Source: a virus
Length of the DNA: 64,000 bases
Direction: 5' to 3' (one strand)
Virus record (IMG/VR): IMGVR_UViG_3300035698_019437
Coordinates: 83,269 to 147,268 of that record
Part shown: piece after piece, positions 24,782 through 31,181 of the stretch
Layout of the letters: every line of letters begins with the position of its first letter
Position numbering within the stretch: the first letter of the stretch is position 1
Program-made: the position numbers and the translations under genes
Notes under the pieces: generated by a model
Database searches by the model: none
What the model saw: the letters and a program-made list of their open reading frames with translations, nothing else
What the model was told of the DNA's origin: nothing

Positions 24782-25266
24782 TGCTTAAAGTGAATTGGAA
24801 TCAAATTGATGGATCATATATCTATCTCGATAGTGATGGATATCTGACATTCAGACCACAGGATGCTAATGGTATACCTAATAAAGGTATCGGTCTTGTA
24901 AGCCAAAAAGGGATGTCTGGTATTTCTAAGCTAGGCTCGTATGGAGTAAATATTGATTTAAGTATAGAAGTATTTGATTCTTCTATGAACCCTATGGTTA
25001 GTGTTGATCAAGATGCGGCGTATAATGCTTTGAAAGTTATACAGGGAAAAAATCCAAATTCAAATTCCATAGAGGGTATAAGTATGGGTGACATAGAGGA
25101 ATCCCAGTTATTAGAAGTAAAGATGCCAAGTAATCCTCCAACAGTTGTTGATGGAAAGCTCGTTCTTGATGCAAATAAAAAAAATGGCAATATAGCGAGT
25201 AAAAAAGATTCTAAAGGCTATGAAAAATCTTATAAGTTTATTGATATAGAAGATTCAGATACATAA
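24781..25266 (+). CDS. Hypothetical protein
   Basis: TAATG-coupled ORF. Confidence 0.6.
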   Translation: MLKVNWNQIDGSYIYLDSDGYLTFRPQDANGIPNKGIGLVSQKGMSGISKLGSYGVNIDLSIEVFDSSMNPMVSVDQDAAYNALKVIQGKNPNSNSIEGISMGDIEESQLLEVKMPSNPPTVVDGKLVLDANKKNGNIASKKDSKGYEKSYKFIDIEDSDT

Positions 25267-25541
25267 TGCCAACATATTCATATAGACATCCAGAAAGTGG
25301 TGAAATCTTAGAAGATTTTAGAACCATAAGCAAAAGAGAAGAACCATTTATAGCTCCCGATGGAGCGGAATGTGAATTCGTTCCATTCTGTCATGGGAAA
25401 GCTCCTGAGATAGGCATTGGTAAAAAAGAAGGATGGGAACTTGATGAGAAGTTCTATCGAAAGACTAATCCAAAATTTGTAAAATATCGCGATGGCCGAA
25501 GAGAACGATATGATCCTAATAAGCATCGTAAACAATATTAA
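25266..25541 (+). CDS. FmdB-like (degenerate zinc ribbon) small protein
   Basis: MPTYSY..PESGE..E start typical of FmdB family, but most Cys absent. Confidence 0.55.
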   Translation: MPTYSYRHPESGEILEDFRTISKREEPFIAPDGAECEFVPFCHGKAPEIGIGKKEGWELDEKFYRKTNPKFVKYRDGRRERYDPNKHRKQY

Positions 25542-25900
25542 TGAGATATATACGTCAACAACAATTTATTACAACTGTCACCGATCAAGAAATTAAAAAA
25601 CACGATGACATAAATAATCTTCTAACTGCTATAAGAAACGGAAGTGCAGATATCCATTTAGTCTATGAAGATGCAAGAACGTCTTCTATCATATCCCATA
25701 AAAAAACTCGTATTAAAAAAGTGGAAGACGGTAAAATAGACATTACATCTTTCGGTAAAAGCGGTAGCATCTCTGTCAAAAATATTACTTTTGATAATAT
25801 CATATCGATTAGAATAGTGACAGATACTGAGAATATAATGGTAGATGAAAAGAAGATTACAAGAGCAGATTTACTTGATATAGAAATAGAATCGGAGTAA
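25541..25900 (+). CDS. Hypothetical protein
   Basis: TAATG-coupled, beta-rich. Confidence 0.6.
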   Translation: MRYIRQQQFITTVTDQEIKKHDDINNLLTAIRNGSADIHLVYEDARTSSIISHKKTRIKKVEDGKIDITSFGKSGSISVKNITFDNIISIRIVTDTENIMVDEKKITRADLLDIEIESE

Positions 25901-25905
25901 TCAAT

Positions 25906-27219
25906 TTGCAATTCTCTAACTCAAACTTTGTTCATTGTCATGTACACTCAGAGTATAGTCAGTTCGATGGAATATGTTCTATCAATAAATTGGTTATGAA
26001 GGCTAGAGAGATGGGTTTTCCTGCTTTAGCTTTGACTGATCATGGTTCGGTAGGTGGATGGATTAAGTTTTTGAATGAGTGTAATGCAACGAAAACCAAA
26101 AAAGGAGAATCTATTCCTTTTCCAAAAATTAAGCCTATTCTTGGAAGTGAACTATATGTTTCTAAGGATATGTATGCTCAGAGTAAAAATGAGCAGCCAG
26201 AAGGCAGGAAGGGAAACCGTCACTTAGTACTGCTTGCTAAAAATTGGGAGGGTTACAAGAATCTAGCTAGATTGTCCAATGCGTCTTGGACAAAGGGGGT
26301 ATATTATAATCCTCGTGTAGATTTCGACTTATTGTCGAAACATTCTGAAGGTATTATAGCTAGTTCTGCATGTCTTTCAAGCGTTATAAATGCAAATTTG
26401 TTACATGATAGATATGATCAAGCTAAGGCTGCTTCATCTTTATTTAAAGATATTTATGGTGAAGACTTCTTCTTAGAAGTTATGTATCACGGTATTGATG
26501 CTCAACGAGTAATTATAGCTGATATATTTAAGCTAAGTAAAGAACTGGATATTCCTGTAATAGCTACAAATGATGTTCATTATCTTAGCAAGGCTCAATC
26601 CAAATCTCATGAAATTTGGATGTGTATGAAAAGCGGTGATAATGTTAAATGTATTCATGATACAAAAAGAATCAAGTTCCCGTTCCCAGAAATGTATTTG
26701 AAAAGTGCAGAAGAGATGTCAGTTGTATTTGGGGATTCTCCTCAGATTCTTTTCAACACTCTATCTATAGCGGAAAGAGTAGATGATGCTGATATAAATA
26801 AAAACCTCTTTGGTGGTATGAGACTTCCTGTATTTCACGTGCCAGAAGAATTTGAAACTTCTTACGACTATCTAAAGAAGTTATCATTAGATGGTTTAAA
26901 GAAACTTGGTTGGGATAAAAGCCCACAGCACGTAGAAGCGTTTGAAGTTGAGATGGAAGATATAAGGATAGCTAAAGAGAATAACGATTATGATTTTGCT
27001 ACATATTTTCTTATCGTAAGAGATTATATCAAAAATGCGAAATCAAAGGGGATTCTTTGTGGACCCGGTAGAGGTTCAGGTTATGGAAGTGTTGTTCTAA
27101 GATGTATAGGAGTTACATATGGACCAGACCCATTAAAGTATGGATTGCTTTGGGAAAGATTCTTGGGTTTTGATAACAAAAGATTTGTTATGGAAAAAGA
27201 CTTTGGTTTTGAGGAATAA
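25906..27219 (+). CDS. dnaE: DNA polymerase III alpha subunit, N-terminal part (PHP domain and first part of palm)
   Basis: FVHCHVHSEYSQFDG, ALTDHG, KPILGSE, HLVLLAKN, SACL, TNDVHY, YFLIVRDY, GPGRGSG, LLWERFL then stop. Confidence 0.93.
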   Translation: MQFSNSNFVHCHVHSEYSQFDGICSINKLVMKAREMGFPALALTDHGSVGGWIKFLNECNATKTKKGESIPFPKIKPILGSELYVSKDMYAQSKNEQPEGRKGNRHLVLLAKNWEGYKNLARLSNASWTKGVYYNPRVDFDLLSKHSEGIIASSACLSSVINANLLHDRYDQAKAASSLFKDIYGEDFFLEVMYHGIDAQRVIIADIFKLSKELDIPVIATNDVHYLSKAQSKSHEIWMCMKSGDNVKCIHDTKRIKFPFPEMYLKSAEEMSVVFGDSPQILFNTLSIAERVDDADINKNLFGGMRLPVFHVPEEFETSYDYLKKLSLDGLKKLGWDKSPQHVEAFEVEMEDIRIAKENNDYDFATYFLIVRDYIKNAKSKGILCGPGRGSGYGSVVLRCIGVTYGPDPLKYGLLWERFLGFDNKRFVMEKDFGFEE

Positions 27220-27220
27220 T

Positions 27221-27388
27221 ATGCTTCATAATGAAATGGCAGATATGTTTGTTATAAAATATAAAGAAGAATTGTCAGAGTTAGTTAAGGATGTGCCTCG
27301 ATTAAGGTGGACAATAGTTCAGGAATTCAAAGTAAATTTTCCTACTGCCATGTCGGTGGTGAAACATATAATGGAGAATAACAGATGA
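27221..27388 (+). CDS. Small hypothetical protein (55 aa) between dnaE halves
   Basis: GAGGA RBS then ATG at 27221; ATGA overlap with next gene. Confidence 0.55.
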   Translation: MLHNEMADMFVIKYKEELSELVKDVPRLRWTIVQEFKVNFPTAMSVVKHIMENNR

Positions 27389-27906
27389 TGATAGATGATT
27401 TTATGAGTGATCTAGACTTTTTAAGAATTGCGTATCGCGTAGCAGAACAACATTCAACTGATCCAAGCACCCAGAACGGTGCCATTCTTGTGAAGAAGTG
27501 TTTTGATCCTAATTCCATACAAGTATGGGGCATGGGCGCTAACCATTTTCCAGAAGGTGTGAAAGATATTCCCGAGAGATGGGAAAGACCACAGAAGTAT
27601 GGATATGTAGAACACGCTGGAAGAAACGCTATATACGATGCCGCTAGAAAAGGTTTTGGTACAGAAGATTTAGTAATGTACTGTCCTTGGTTTGCATGTT
27701 CTGATTGTGCTAGAGCTATCATACAAGCAGGTATTTCAGAAGTTATAGGTCATCAGGATCAACTGGATCGAACTCCTGAGCGATGGATGGAAACGATTGA
27801 TGTCGCCCTTAATATGCTTAAGGAAGCCGGTGTTGACTATAGATTTGTCCCTGGCAAAGTTGGTGGAGTAAAGATTACATTTAATGGAGAAATTATTGAG
27901 CCGTAA
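27385..27906 (+). CDS. dCMP deaminase family protein; catalytic Glu replaced by Gly
   Basis: S.DPSTQNGA, GANHFP.G, RPQKYGYVEHAGRNAI, CPWFACSDCARAIIQAGI. Confidence 0.88.
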   Translation: MMIDDFMSDLDFLRIAYRVAEQHSTDPSTQNGAILVKKCFDPNSIQVWGMGANHFPEGVKDIPERWERPQKYGYVEHAGRNAIYDAARKGFGTEDLVMYCPWFACSDCARAIIQAGISEVIGHQDQLDRTPERWMETIDVALNMLKEAGVDYRFVPGKVGGVKITFNGEIIEP

Positions 27907-29867
27907 TGTCTGATATTAGAAACGAAATTCTGAAGCATATAGGTGATGTTGATTCTAAGTCGTGTGATAAGGTTAATATTGAACTTGATATCATGGAAAT
28001 CACTGATGCTTTAGAAGGTGGAAGCTCTCTAGAAGTTTTCTATGATATATGGCAAAAGAATCGTCATAGAACAGGAAAAACCAACAACGTAAATAGTTGG
28101 ACTGCTTATCTATTAGGCATTACGTCTATGAAACCTGATGGCGATTTTATGCCTGAACGTAGAGCATTTGCAAGAGCAGGATTTCCTGATATTGATTCTG
28201 ATTTTGACTATTTCAGAAGAGATGAAGTCTATGATTATATTATAGATAAGTTTGGTCGAGATAATGTAGCTAACATAGGAACGTATCAGGCTTTAAAGTT
28301 GAAATCTGCTGTTCGTCGTATAGGTAAGGTTATTGATATTGCAGGAGCTTATCATAAGGGTAAAGATAAATATACAACTGAAAATGAGAAAAAAGTTTCA
28401 GAGATTATCAATTCTTTGCCTTTCCAAGTTGGTGCAAAACTAAAAATAAAAGACGATAGCGGTGAAACGCAAGAAATAAAATCAATTGAAGATGCATACA
28501 AGTACTGTAAAGATTTTAGATATTACATGGACAAGTATCCTGATATTCGAAATCATGCTAAGAACATTGAAGGTCTTCTTTCTATATTTGGGAAGCATGC
28601 CGCAGGTATTGTTGTTTCTGATGTTCCTTTAGACGAAATTGCTCCTGTTAGAACGGCAAGAGGCAATAGTCTTGCAACACAGTTCGTGTTGGATGAGCTA
28701 GATCAGATCGGACTTATTAAGTTTGATATTCTTGCTTTAAGTGCGCTTACTGTAATAGATAGAGCGGTCAGTATGGTTAAAGAAAACTATGGTATAGATA
28801 TAGACATAGAAAATTTGCCATTAGATGACTCTAAGACCTTGGCTCTTTACAGGACTGGGAAACTTGCTGGGGTATTTCAAGCTGAAACAAGTGCAATGCA
28901 AAAAACTATGATGGATATCAGTATAAATAGATTTGAAGACATCATAGCTTCAATTGCGTTGTTTAGACCTGGCCCAATGGATAGTATTCCAGAATATTGT
29001 GCCAGAAAAAGAGGAGAGAGAAGTGTAGAATATTTTCATCCGTCTATTGAGCCACATGTTAAGAAGTACTTAGAAGGTACATATGGAGTTTTGGTTTATC
29101 AAGAGACGGTTATGCAAATATGTAATGCCCTTGCAGGTTTTTCTATATCCGATGGTTATGTTGTCATTAAGGGTATTGGAAAGAAGAAAGAACATATTAT
29201 TAAGAAGTTTAGGGGTCAGTTTATAGAAGGTTGCGTGAAGAATGATGTCCCTAGAGATGTAGCAGAAAAATATTGGGACAAGTTCATTACTCCGTTTGCA
29301 TCTTATGGATTCAACTTAGCTCATAGTTGTTGCTATGCATACTTGAGTTATATAACCGCTTATCTCAAAGCAAATTATCCTGACGAATTCATGTGTTCTT
29401 TCTTGAACGTAGAAAATGAAAGAAAGAATCACGATAAGGTCGCGGTACTTATGAAAGATTTGAAAAATTTCAATATAGAGCTAGGCCCAAAAAGAATTAA
29501 CTCATGTAGCGTAGATTTTTGTATTGTGAAAAAGAGGGATGTATCATCTGGTATAGAGAAAACCGTTATATCCCCAAGTATTGCATGTAAGGGTGTAGGG
29601 TCAAATAGTGCAGAAGAAATAGCTAAGAATGGTCCTTATGGAGGTCTTAGAGACTTAGCTACTAAAACCAGTTCTAATATAGTAGATCAAGAAGTAATCA
29701 GCAACTTATTCGACGCAGGGTTTTTTGAATCTTATCTTAAAGATTATAAAAAGAAGAATAAGAAGGCAATGACCAAAGAATTATTGGTTAGTCGATTTGC
29801 TTCTATAAGAGAAGATATGAAGAAAGCCGCCCAGAAGGGCGTAATATCAAAAGACCTATTTGGTTAA
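27906..29867 (+). CDS. dnaE: DNA polymerase III alpha subunit, C-terminal part (catalytic palm, thumb, fingers, HhH; no OB fold)
   Basis: RAGFPDIDSDF, HAAGIVVS, GLIKFDILAL, GVFQAE, ALFRPGP, TYGVLVYQE, YGFNLAHS, YLKANYP, KGVG, ends SKDLFG. Confidence 0.93.
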   Translation: MSDIRNEILKHIGDVDSKSCDKVNIELDIMEITDALEGGSSLEVFYDIWQKNRHRTGKTNNVNSWTAYLLGITSMKPDGDFMPERRAFARAGFPDIDSDFDYFRRDEVYDYIIDKFGRDNVANIGTYQALKLKSAVRRIGKVIDIAGAYHKGKDKYTTENEKKVSEIINSLPFQVGAKLKIKDDSGETQEIKSIEDAYKYCKDFRYYMDKYPDIRNHAKNIEGLLSIFGKHAAGIVVSDVPLDEIAPVRTARGNSLATQFVLDELDQIGLIKFDILALSALTVIDRAVSMVKENYGIDIDIENLPLDDSKTLALYRTGKLAGVFQAETSAMQKTMMDISINRFEDIIASIALFRPGPMDSIPEYCARKRGERSVEYFHPSIEPHVKKYLEGTYGVLVYQETVMQICNALAGFSISDGYVVIKGIGKKKEHIIKKFRGQFIEGCVKNDVPRDVAEKYWDKFITPFASYGFNLAHSCCYAYLSYITAYLKANYPDEFMCSFLNVENERKNHDKVAVLMKDLKNFNIELGPKRINSCSVDFCIVKKRDVSSGIEKTVISPSIACKGVGSNSAEEIAKNGPYGGLRDLATKTSSNIVDQEVISNLFDAGFFESYLKDYKKKNKKAMTKELLVSRFASIREDMKKAAQKGVISKDLFG

Positions 29868-29880
29868 TTGGAGAAATTAG

Positions 29881-30186
29881 ATGTCAGAACAAACACGCAA
29901 ATCTATTATTCATAAGACAATCACTAGAAAACTTAGTACCGCAAAATTTGAGAGTCTAGACTTAACTGTTGAATTTGAAGAAGAGGTAGAGTGGAATTCT
30001 ATTAAAGAAAGACAAGAAAAGTCCGATAAGATTACAAAGCTTCTTTTGGTTGATTACACGAAAACAAGAAATGCTGTTTTGGATGTTCTTGGTTTGACAG
30101 AAAAGAAAGCGTCTGTAAGCAGCACAGTTACAACTAAAAGCAAAGAATATAATGTTCAAGAACTCGGCTTGGACGATTTGAAATAG
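29881..30186 (+). CDS. Hypothetical protein
   Basis: GGAG RBS; RKLSTAKFESLDL segment. Confidence 0.6.
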   Translation: MSEQTRKSIIHKTITRKLSTAKFESLDLTVEFEEEVEWNSIKERQEKSDKITKLLLVDYTKTRNAVLDVLGLTEKKASVSSTVTTKSKEYNVQELGLDDLK

Positions 30187-30194
30187 GAGTAAGT

Positions 30195-31181
30195 ATGAAA
30201 GATTTAGATGATATTTTTGATATACCTACAGAGAAAAAAGAACAGCAAGAAGATGATCCGAATACGAAGTTCGGAGACAAAGTTGCAGACGTTGTAGGAG
30301 ATTTGTCTAAAGACTCTGTAGCTTTGGAAGTTACGCATGTTATGGCAGCAGATGATGCGCCTCCCGGCGTAGCTGAAGATTTAGAGAAGATAGTTGAAGC
30401 TAAATCAGAACCCGAGTCTCTTCCAGAAGAGGTTGTACCCGCACAAGGTGGTGAAGAAGTAGGGAAATATTACGACGAACCCGGTGCCATACCAGGTGGT
30501 CCATGGATACTTAAAAGTCCAAATTCTATGTATGATAATTTCTATGAAGAGAAGAAGGAATTATTAACACAGATACTTGTTGATGGAGCTATACCATTTC
30601 CTAAATACAGGAACGAGCTTAAAACAAGTAGCGTAGATATATCTGTAGTTACCTTTGATAAAGATGAGATATACCAGAAGATGTCTGCTGTTCAAGGTTT
30701 GAAAGAAAGAGTTAAGCAAATTCAAATTCATTGCAATAGCCAATTTTTTCTTTGGGAACGTTCTTTACAGCTTATGCACGGTGTTCTAGCTCGTATAGAT
30801 TACGAAAAACCAGTTGTTAAGAATGAAGGCGTTGTATATGAACATATGAATGATATGGAAAGATACTTTGGTAATCTTAAAGGGTTGACCAAATCTGCTG
30901 ATGCTGTTATGAAGACGCTAGAAGGTGCGTTTGATTGTCTTTCCAGGAGAGTAACTATAGCTATGCCGATGCGAGGTATAGAAAGAAAAGAACCTCAACC
31001 TCAACTGCAACCGCAACTGCAACCTCAACCGCAACTGCAACCTCAACCGCAACCCAAGTCGGAAGAAATGTCTTATTTCGATAAATTAGATTCATCTGCG
31101 TCTAAGCAAATTATTGAAAGTCATAAAGTTTCTGAGAAAAAAGTCAAGGGTACACAAAGTGTGAGTTGGGGAAACATATAA
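30195..31181 (+). CDS. Hypothetical coiled-coil protein with PQ repeat, upstream of SSB/RecA
   Basis: AGGAG RBS; acidic N-terminus, long helical core, PQPQLQ repeat. Confidence 0.6.
   Translation: MKDLDDIFDIPTEKKEQQEDDPNTKFGDKVADVVGDLSKDSVALEVTHVMAADDAPPGVAEDLEKIVEAKSEPESLPEEVVPAQGGEEVGKYYDEPGAIPGGPWILKSPNSMYDNFYEEKKELLTQILVDGAIPFPKYRNELKTSSVDISVVTFDKDEIYQKMSAVQGLKERVKQIQIHCNSQFFLWERSLQLMHGVLARIDYEKPVVKNEGVVYEHMNDMERYFGNLKGLTKSADAVMKTLEGAFDCLSRRVTIAMPMRGIERKEPQPQLQPQLQPQPQLQPQPQPKSEEMSYFDKLDSSASKQIIESHKVSEKKVKGTQSVSWGNI
30993..31055 (+). repeat. Coding tandem repeat of CCTCAA/CCGCAA/CTGCAA hexamers (PQPQLQPQLQPQPQLQPQPQP)
   Basis: Directly visible in sequence. Confidence 0.85.

Follow-up and report, generated by a model that had tools for sequence, protein, structure and literature searches.

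Can a replicative DNA polymerase be assembled from two separate proteins that meet inside its active site? C-family polymerases are the replicases of all bacteria, and to our knowledge every form on record is either one chain or a pair of pieces that an intein rejoins. The question is raised by positions 25906-29867 of a 64,000-nucleotide (nt) stretch of viral DNA (positions 83,269 to 147,268 of IMG/VR record IMGVR_UViG_3300035698_019437; hereafter the window), where a sequence-only reading had described a split dnaE gene, consisting of a half with a PHP domain and a GRGS motif, two intervening open reading frames (ORFs), and a half with the FPDIDSDF motif. This arrangement was confirmed by the ORF list and by Pfam searches. 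We conclude that the two genes very probably encode two subunits of one DnaE-type (C-family) replicative polymerase of a large uncultured phage, which would form a non-covalent heterodimer with a shared active site; of the alternatives put forward earlier, an obligate heterodimer whose two chains contribute to a single active site has the best support, the motifs being invariant on both chains. Four genes on the plus strand make up the locus:

25906..27219, + strand: dnaE-N gene, 437 amino acids (aa); PHP domain and first part of the palm
27221..27388, + strand: small ORF, 55 aa (82 aa with a start at 27140, inside dnaE-N); no known family
27385..27906, + strand: dCMP-deaminase-like gene, 173 aa; PF00383 1.8e-13, phrog_174 4.8e-26
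27906..29867, + strand: dnaE-C gene, 653 aa; a palm-segment pseudo-copy followed by the catalytic strand, thumb, remaining palm, fingers, helix-hairpin-helix (HhH), and a DLF motif at the C-terminus

The stop of dnaE-N and the start of dnaE-C lie 686 nt apart (687 in the sequence-only reading; 2000 nt from start to start), and the two halves are in different reading frames, so that read-through cannot join them. The ATG of the small ORF lies 1 nt past the dnaE-N stop, with GAGGAA just upstream of it; the small ORF and the deaminase-like gene share an ATGA overlap, and the deaminase-like gene and dnaE-C a TAATG overlap. These overlapping or nearly abutting stops and starts suggest that the four products are probably made together. 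Between the dnaE halves, a promoter and terminator scan found sites no more numerous than in shuffled sequences. The domains and motifs of a C-family polymerase are distributed over the two proteins as follows:

25933..26490, + strand: PHP domain, dnaE-N residues 10-195 (PF02811 4.1e-43, full profile)
26869..27216, + strand: copy 1 of a duplicated palm segment, dnaE-N residues 322-437 (PF07733 positions 2-98)
27906..28163, + strand: copy 2 (pseudo-copy) of the palm segment, dnaE-C residues 1-86, helix order as in copy 1
28182..28205, + strand: catalytic strand FPDIDSDF with D95 and D97, invariant in C-protein alignments (Pfam alignment)
28719..28727, + strand: K272-F-D274, invariant columns, D274 being the third catalytic carboxylate
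28746..29243, + strand: finger domain (PF17657 3.3e-50)
29475..29735, + strand: HhH DNA-binding module (HHH_6, PF14579 3.3e-07)
29844..29864, + strand: C-terminal ISKDLFG, conserved in relatives as KGVxSxDLF

Pfam thus divided PF07733 between the proteins, with positions 2-98 following the PHP domain in dnaE-N and positions 68-260 preceding the finger and HHH_6 domains in dnaE-C. In the PHP region of dnaE-N, the nine positions that we take, from M. tuberculosis and T. thermophilus DnaE, to be metal ligands of the proofreading type were all present and invariant in the alignment (H12, H14, D21, H46, E82, H106, C156, D223, and H225). Copy 1 matched bacterial DnaE strongly (hhalign E 1.7e-33) and had intact GRGSGY (27067-27084) and WERFL (27151-27165) motifs, which were invariant across the N-protein alignment; GRGS and ERFL are presumably the equivalents of G363/S364 and R390 of E. 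coli DnaE. Copy 1 ended in a conserved KRFxxxKDFGF tail, from which the catalytic aspartate pair is absent. Invariant in the C-proteins were R86/R90, D95/D97, and K272/D274, and we take R90 to correspond to R396, D95/D97 to D401/D403 and, from knowledge of E. coli DnaE, K272/D274 to K553/D555 (numbering counted on the canonical E. coli sequence and checked against the Pseudomonas dnaE in L005, described below). The elements expected of a C-family polymerase (PHP, GS motif and three carboxylates, fingers, and HhH) were therefore all found, on two chains rather than in one continuous polypeptide. The KGVxSxDLF tail would be a beta-clamp-binding-like motif, judging from the QL[SD]LF consensus. 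In agreement with the earlier observation of an intein-free break, no Pfam intein family matched either protein, and the ends at the break (...KDFGFEE-stop and MSDIRNEIL...) lacked intein blocks, with neither a Cys/Ser+1 nor an HN motif. The FAxY/CFNKSH site, where split-intein DnaE breaks, is continuous here (FASYGFNLAHS).

The sequence-only reading had also noted, near the start of dnaE-C, a second copy of a palm helix already present in dnaE-N. A second copy is indeed there, but its extent had been underestimated: the duplication covers not one helix but ~85 residues, from an RLxxEL-type helix to the strand before the catalytic aspartates, and ~30 PF07733 profile positions occur in both proteins. 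All C-proteins started with a conserved stretch of ~86-91 residues, with the consensus ...KVxxELDLMExTEgxxxxxNLExFYxIWxxxxxxxGxxNxxNSWTAYALGxTSxKPxGxFxPxRR, followed by AFARAGFPDIDSDF; the window segment NSWTAYLLGITSMKP (28092-28136) lies within this pseudo-copy. GRGS was absent from the pseudo-copy in every member seen, GxxNxxNSWTAY standing where GPGRGSxxGS is expected. G57, N60, N63, S64, W65, T66, and A67 were invariant, and the pseudo-copy is, on sequence evidence, itself under selection. When 37 pseudo-copy stretches, cut before the catalytic strand, were compared with bacterial DnaE cut before ERFL, hhalign matched them to the bacterial palm's N-terminal segment with 87.5% probability (E 3.6e-6, 58 columns in register), whereas the best of 20 column shuffles reached an E value of 0.011 and the reversed alignment 0.38. 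The register paired the ELxxI helix with RxxyEL, FYxIW with YFLIVWD, GxkNxINS with GPGRGSaAGS, and WTAYxLGmTsxkP with ivaYxLgItdIDP. Because the helices match in register and shuffles are far weaker, the start of dnaE-C is, by these alignments, a true, diverged second copy of the palm segment that ends dnaE-N. A pseudo-copy profile searched against 1.84 billion representatives had 56 matches at E<=1e-3. Almost all of them fell within the first 90 residues of a protein, either ~650-680 aa or ~1050-1076 aa long or a fragment, and three were internal to longer single-chain forms. Canonical DnaE was not reached by this search, and the homology therefore rests on Pfam, hhalign, and the shuffle control; a word-based search with the pseudo-copy alone (residues 1-85) gave no matches, too few words being shared.

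The split had been treated as a peculiarity of a single genome; instead, the break and the two-gene form are, among the relatives collected here, the majority architecture of a large phage clade. A search with dnaE-N among proteins of similar length, clustered at 90% identity, returned at least 120 clusters of 430-500 aa with 55-66% identity to dnaE-N, all with PHP and a partial PF07733, and motif classing of 240 proteins from the similar-length and longer-protein searches gave ~150 stand-alone N-proteins. Counted as clusters at 90% identity, >140 relatives share this break, and they come from samples and sources independent of one another. In all eight split loci inspected (the window, L002, L003, L004, a Logan contig, the P0049 contig, L039, and L040), a C-gene of 650-663 aa came next in the same orientation (in L040 and the Logan contig it runs off the end of the contig), and related phages thus share the breakpoint. 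Where the flanks reach, the gene order was DnaB, a stand-alone Zn-ribbon primase piece, a methylase, small ORFs, dnaE-N, dnaE-C, small ORFs, RecA, and a Toprim primase piece. The gap held no gene in L003 (stop and start abutting in frame), L004, and L039 (8-nt overlap), one gene in L002 (a 151-aa ORF of no known family), the P0049 contig (a 76-aa ORF), and L040 (ClpP), and two genes in the window. The break being shared and the gap variable, the break is therefore old and the gap repeatedly receives foreign genes. Particular to the window are its two gap genes, the HAG motif of its deaminase-like gene, and a short N-protein tail without a GGVDRY ending.

Two single-chain forms were found in the same clade, at the same level of identity, when longer proteins were searched. 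In chains of ~1090-1117 aa, both copies are joined by a short linker (e.g., P0121, P0122, and P0173), and chains of ~991-998 aa have canonical length and no pseudo-copy (P0126, P0127, and L001 from IMG/VR). P0122 (locus L008) and P0127 (locus L009) translate under table 11 and have the same synteny. Since both copies occur in one-chain forms, the copies coexist in one enzyme and nothing needs splicing out. In trees rooted on bacterial DnaE, all phage forms fell into one clade (support 100), the deepest branches were split or duplicated forms, canonical-length forms were nested among the duplicated ones in both N- and C-region trees, and the single-chain forms were placed as follows:

N-region tree, FastTree, 179 rows: at least 4 nested positions for canonical-length forms, at least 6 positions for single chains with both copies
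N-region tree, IQ-TREE quick, 77 rows: at least 3 nested positions for canonical-length forms, at least 6 positions for single chains with both copies
C-region tree (after the catalytic strand), IQ-TREE quick, 45 rows: at least 4 positions for canonical-length forms, with the same groupings, and at least 6 positions for single chains with both copies

Forcing all duplication-bearing rows into one clade cost 176 log-likelihood units (approximately unbiased [AU] test, p-AU 6e-5, a test weakened by the choice of the constrained group after the first tree was viewed). On the simplest reading of these trees, the ancestor of the clade would already have had the duplication, fission and re-fusion would have been repeated, and the canonical-length forms would be later deletions of the pseudo-copy. 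In L003, a single stop codon parts two in-frame genes. The junction ERFL(A/G)F-x4-7-GKR(V/F)FAR was common to all canonical forms, so that short-patch recombination spreading one deleted allele is an alternative to repeated deletion. On either view, copy 1 was retained and copy 2 dropped wherever a single chain of canonical length was regained, which marks copy 1, in the N-protein, as the probable working nucleotide-binding part.

The single-chain form P0122 (1089 aa) was modeled from an alignment of 52 sequences, and the predicted fold had a mean predicted local distance difference test score (pLDDT) of 91.2 and a predicted template modeling score (pTM) of 0.85. The tail of copy 1 formed a strand at 416-419, only the 10-residue linker (431-440) dropped in confidence (pLDDT 68), and the pseudo-copy (441-530, pLDDT 84-96) had the same helix-helix-helix order as copy 1. 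The model matched Pol III alpha structures with Z scores of 40-47, among them the following (rmsd, root mean square deviation):

4iqj_A: Z 46.9, rmsd 5.7, 884 residues aligned
7pu7_A: Z 43.7, rmsd 3.6, 902 residues aligned
3e0d_A: Z 40.4, rmsd 2.8, 896 residues aligned

The window C-protein modeled alone had a pLDDT of 89.9 (~91 in residues 1-80 and 61 in residues 81-90), and four of its best structural alignments began at residue 86-88, leaving the pseudo-copy out:

2hpi: Z 30.6, rmsd 7.8, 510 residues aligned
3e0d_A: Z 30.3, rmsd 4.3, 513 residues aligned
5lew: Z 28.6
7pu7_A: Z 23.3

In five of the ten best C-protein alignments, the first aligned model residue was 34-36, opposite E. coli 330-333 or Taq 394, the canonical position of the N-terminal palm segment; these alignment ranges give the first and last aligned residues only, and a model without its partner tends to fill an empty site. 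The C-protein model would support the fold of the pseudo-copy only, not its placement in a complex. These alignments bear on the other possibility raised by the sequence-only reading, that the C-protein is a self-sufficient polymerase whose own pseudo-copy completes the palm, the N-protein being a detachable PHP proofreading subunit. The confident helical pseudo-copy of the lone model and the five alignments that begin at the canonical place speak for such an enzyme, but a partnerless model tends to fill an empty site, and the pseudo-copy is omitted from the four alignments listed above. Moreover, no pseudo-copy has GRGS whereas N-proteins keep GRGSGY and WERFL invariant, and the canonical-length relatives retained copy 1 and dropped the pseudo-copy. 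We therefore disfavor self-sufficiency of the C-half and regard it as improbable.

Of the two genes in the window gap, the 55-aa ORF was absent from the gaps of L002-L004, L039, and L040. The deaminase-like gene retained its zinc ligands and reads HAG for HAE (EHAGRN, with GGA at 27619-27621), the Gly codon being one base from Glu. EHAERN was found in 17 IMG/VR relatives of this gene (45-55% identity), none of which (0 of 17) lies between dnaE halves, and HAE was found in two annotated phage dCMP deaminases; the replacement of the catalytic Glu may be a sequencing error, a recent inactivation, or the mark of a pseudo-enzyme. The deaminase-like family occurs elsewhere in phage genomes, and no dnaE motifs were found within 3 kb of its IMG/VR relatives (0 of 27). 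The 151-aa gap ORF of L002, tried as kin of the deaminase-like gene, proved unrelated. No homing endonuclease gene was found in the gap, whose ORFs are the deaminase-like gene and the 55-aa ORF. In the best explanation of the locus, both would have entered later, in a gap where foreign genes land again and again. Breakage or misassembly, in the sense of a decaying dnaE with an insertion, would fit the missing catalytic Glu of the gap gene and the continuous dnaE of some relatives. The break, however, recurs in the >140 clusters, independent in sample and source, and is present where nothing is inserted (L003, L004, and L039), and both window halves, far from decaying, are fully conserved, with intact invariant motifs and zero internal stops; decay or misassembly is thus highly improbable.

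A 14-nt inverted repeat (13 of 14 positions complementary; 27219-27232 and 27927-27940) brackets both inserted genes; its first arm coincides with the stop of dnaE-N, and its second lies 21 nt inside dnaE-C. The repeat may have been left by the insertion, may pair in RNA, or may be due to chance, which would give roughly 0.2-1 such repeats per 1.6 kb. A scan of 25000-31000 against Rfam, with its group I and group II intron families, returned no match at E<=1. Joining of the halves after transcription or translation, by an unrecognized intron, an intein, or ribosomal bypass, might be suspected from the inverted repeat and from the abundance of inteins in this gene family, but with no intein blocks at either end, no Rfam intron, a gap made of two intact genes packed against their neighbors, and single-chain relatives that retain both copies and the linker with nothing to remove, we consider it scarcely credible.

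Inteins were seen elsewhere in the clade. Many N-proteins carry LAGLIDADG inteins (P0124, P0128, P0130, and others, 840-900 aa), as do the DnaB and RecA encoded by neighboring genes in L003 and L009; the window halves are intein-free. L001 (7300-9339), a 62%-identical relative that is continuous at the break studied here, is cut downstream (FASYGFN/CLDG... and ...VFSAN/SHS) by intein halves with a free-standing 384-aa LAGLIDADG-type ORF between them, an arrangement of the type described as "fractured genes" with split inteins (Dassa et al. 2009, PMC2677866). The primase was also found in pieces in L002-L004, L008, L009, and L039, with a Zn-ribbon DnaG gene beside DnaB and a Toprim gene after RecA, several kb away. 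The phage GenBank collection held no relative above 40% identity. Its best-covering match, "Pseudomonas phage Y1," was rejected, having turned out to be P. aeruginosa-like chromosomal DNA: L005 (OQ572403.1 1-7127, UNVERIFIED) has a full 1185-aa dnaE with rnhB- and lpxB-like genes at one end, and this end is probably host contamination of the assembly.

A two-subunit polymerase could have arisen and could operate as follows. A tandem duplication in the clade's ancestor would have copied the opening part of the palm, which runs from the RLxxEL helix up to the strand preceding the aspartates. Decay would then have been complementary, copy 1 keeping the triphosphate-binding GRGS and the ERFL arginine and losing the aspartates, and copy 2 losing GRGS and keeping the aspartates, and the chain would later have been cut in the poorly conserved linker between the copies. 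The N-subunit would supply proofreading, through its PHP nuclease, and that half of the active site which binds the nucleotide, and the C-subunit the Mg-binding aspartates, thumb, fingers, HhH, and clamp-binding-like tail. The subunits would assemble without covalent joining, and their interface is probably made by the well-conserved pseudo-copy with which the C-subunit begins and by the conserved KRFxxxDFGF tail that ends the N-subunit. In the coding sequence of this N-tail, a 31-nt direct repeat (74%; 27143-27173 and 27182-27212, 39 nt apart) encodes LLWERFLGFD and FVMEKDFGFE, so that the conserved DFGF tail, instead of being what is left of a catalytic strand, may have come from a short repetition of ERFLGF.

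Three points weigh against a heterodimeric replicase formed in this way. Copy 2 did not match copy 1 of the same clade significantly (hhalign E 0.1), unlike its match to bacterial DnaE; copy 1 of the clade has diverged in its own way (SVLLRCLGITYG). The window N-protein (ending KDFGFEE) belongs to a short-tailed minority: 93 of 150 stand-alone N-proteins of relatives end in an acidic linker and a near-invariant ...EDDLGGVDRY-COOH, a tail that the window protein lacks, and an EDDLGGVDRY-type motif was found nowhere in the 147-kb record. Finally, the record is an IMG/VR fragment, ~29% complete by CheckV, and another polymerase may lie elsewhere in the phage, in which case the present one could be accessory; neither PolA nor PolB (PF00136) was found in this fragment, nor was a beta-clamp family, but at such completeness these absences mean little. 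With these points counted, we still hold the shared-site heterodimer to be very probable. To the fuller account we give somewhat less than even weight, namely, that tandem duplication and complementary decay made the active site divisible, that the pseudo-palm and the degenerate tail act as a clasp between subunits, that split, single-chain-with-duplicate, and canonical forms interconvert, and that the canonical-length forms are secondary deletions rather than ancestral.

Compared with single-chain DnaE or Pol III alpha (E. coli 2HNH, T. aquaticus 2HPI/3E0D, and M. tuberculosis DnaE1 5LEW/7PU7), the window pair matches in domain order (PHP, palm, thumb, fingers, HhH) and in its active-site residues but consists of two polypeptides with an extra, degenerate ~85-residue palm copy and is without an OB-fold or tau-binding C-terminus. 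The nearest published case that we found is the "minimal" Pol III alpha of group 2.2 T4-like jumbo phages, which is split into NTP-binding and Mg/DNA-binding proteins that are encoded far apart, lack PHP and other domains, and accompany a family B polymerase, and for which reassembly was proposed (Iyer et al. 2021, Viruses 13:63, PMC7824862). It is likewise intein-free and cut conceptually at the same place; the window enzyme differs in being full-size, with PHP, finger, and HhH, in having its halves 686 nt apart (abutting in relatives), and in its duplicated segment, absent from the jumbo-phage description. No PF00136 match was found in the window's record, which is ~29% complete. In cyanobacterial split-intein DnaE, dnaE is also in two genes, but the cut lies in the finger region and the products are trans-spliced, whereas the window cut lies in the palm, without intein blocks, and no joining is expected. 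Precedents for phage enzymes that reassemble from two proteins without splicing are the split family B polymerase 43A/43B of Aeromonas phages 25 and 44RR, whose parts co-purify and are active, the split NrdA of Aeh1, and T4 topoisomerase gp39/gp60 (Edgell et al. 2010, PMC2988022). However, 43A/43B belongs to another polymerase family, and these cuts are tied to homing-endonuclease or untranslated insertions, are known from few phages, and have no reported partial duplication. In surveys of C-family polymerases from bacteria, the only interrupted genes mentioned are split by inteins or frameshifted. An intein-free, duplication-associated split DnaE with PHP in phages was not found in the literature searched, a search that was not exhaustive, and the window feature belongs to a large, apparently undescribed DnaE variant.

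If the two genes do encode one enzyme, a Pol-beta-like palm can be built from parts, with its nucleotide- and metal-binding halves on separate proteins. The clade would then show in detail how an essential enzyme can pass through duplication, complementary decay, and fission, and structural biologists and engineers would have a two-piece polymerase from nature to work with. Annotators of large-phage contigs should accordingly not label "truncated" DnaE genes as pseudogenes.

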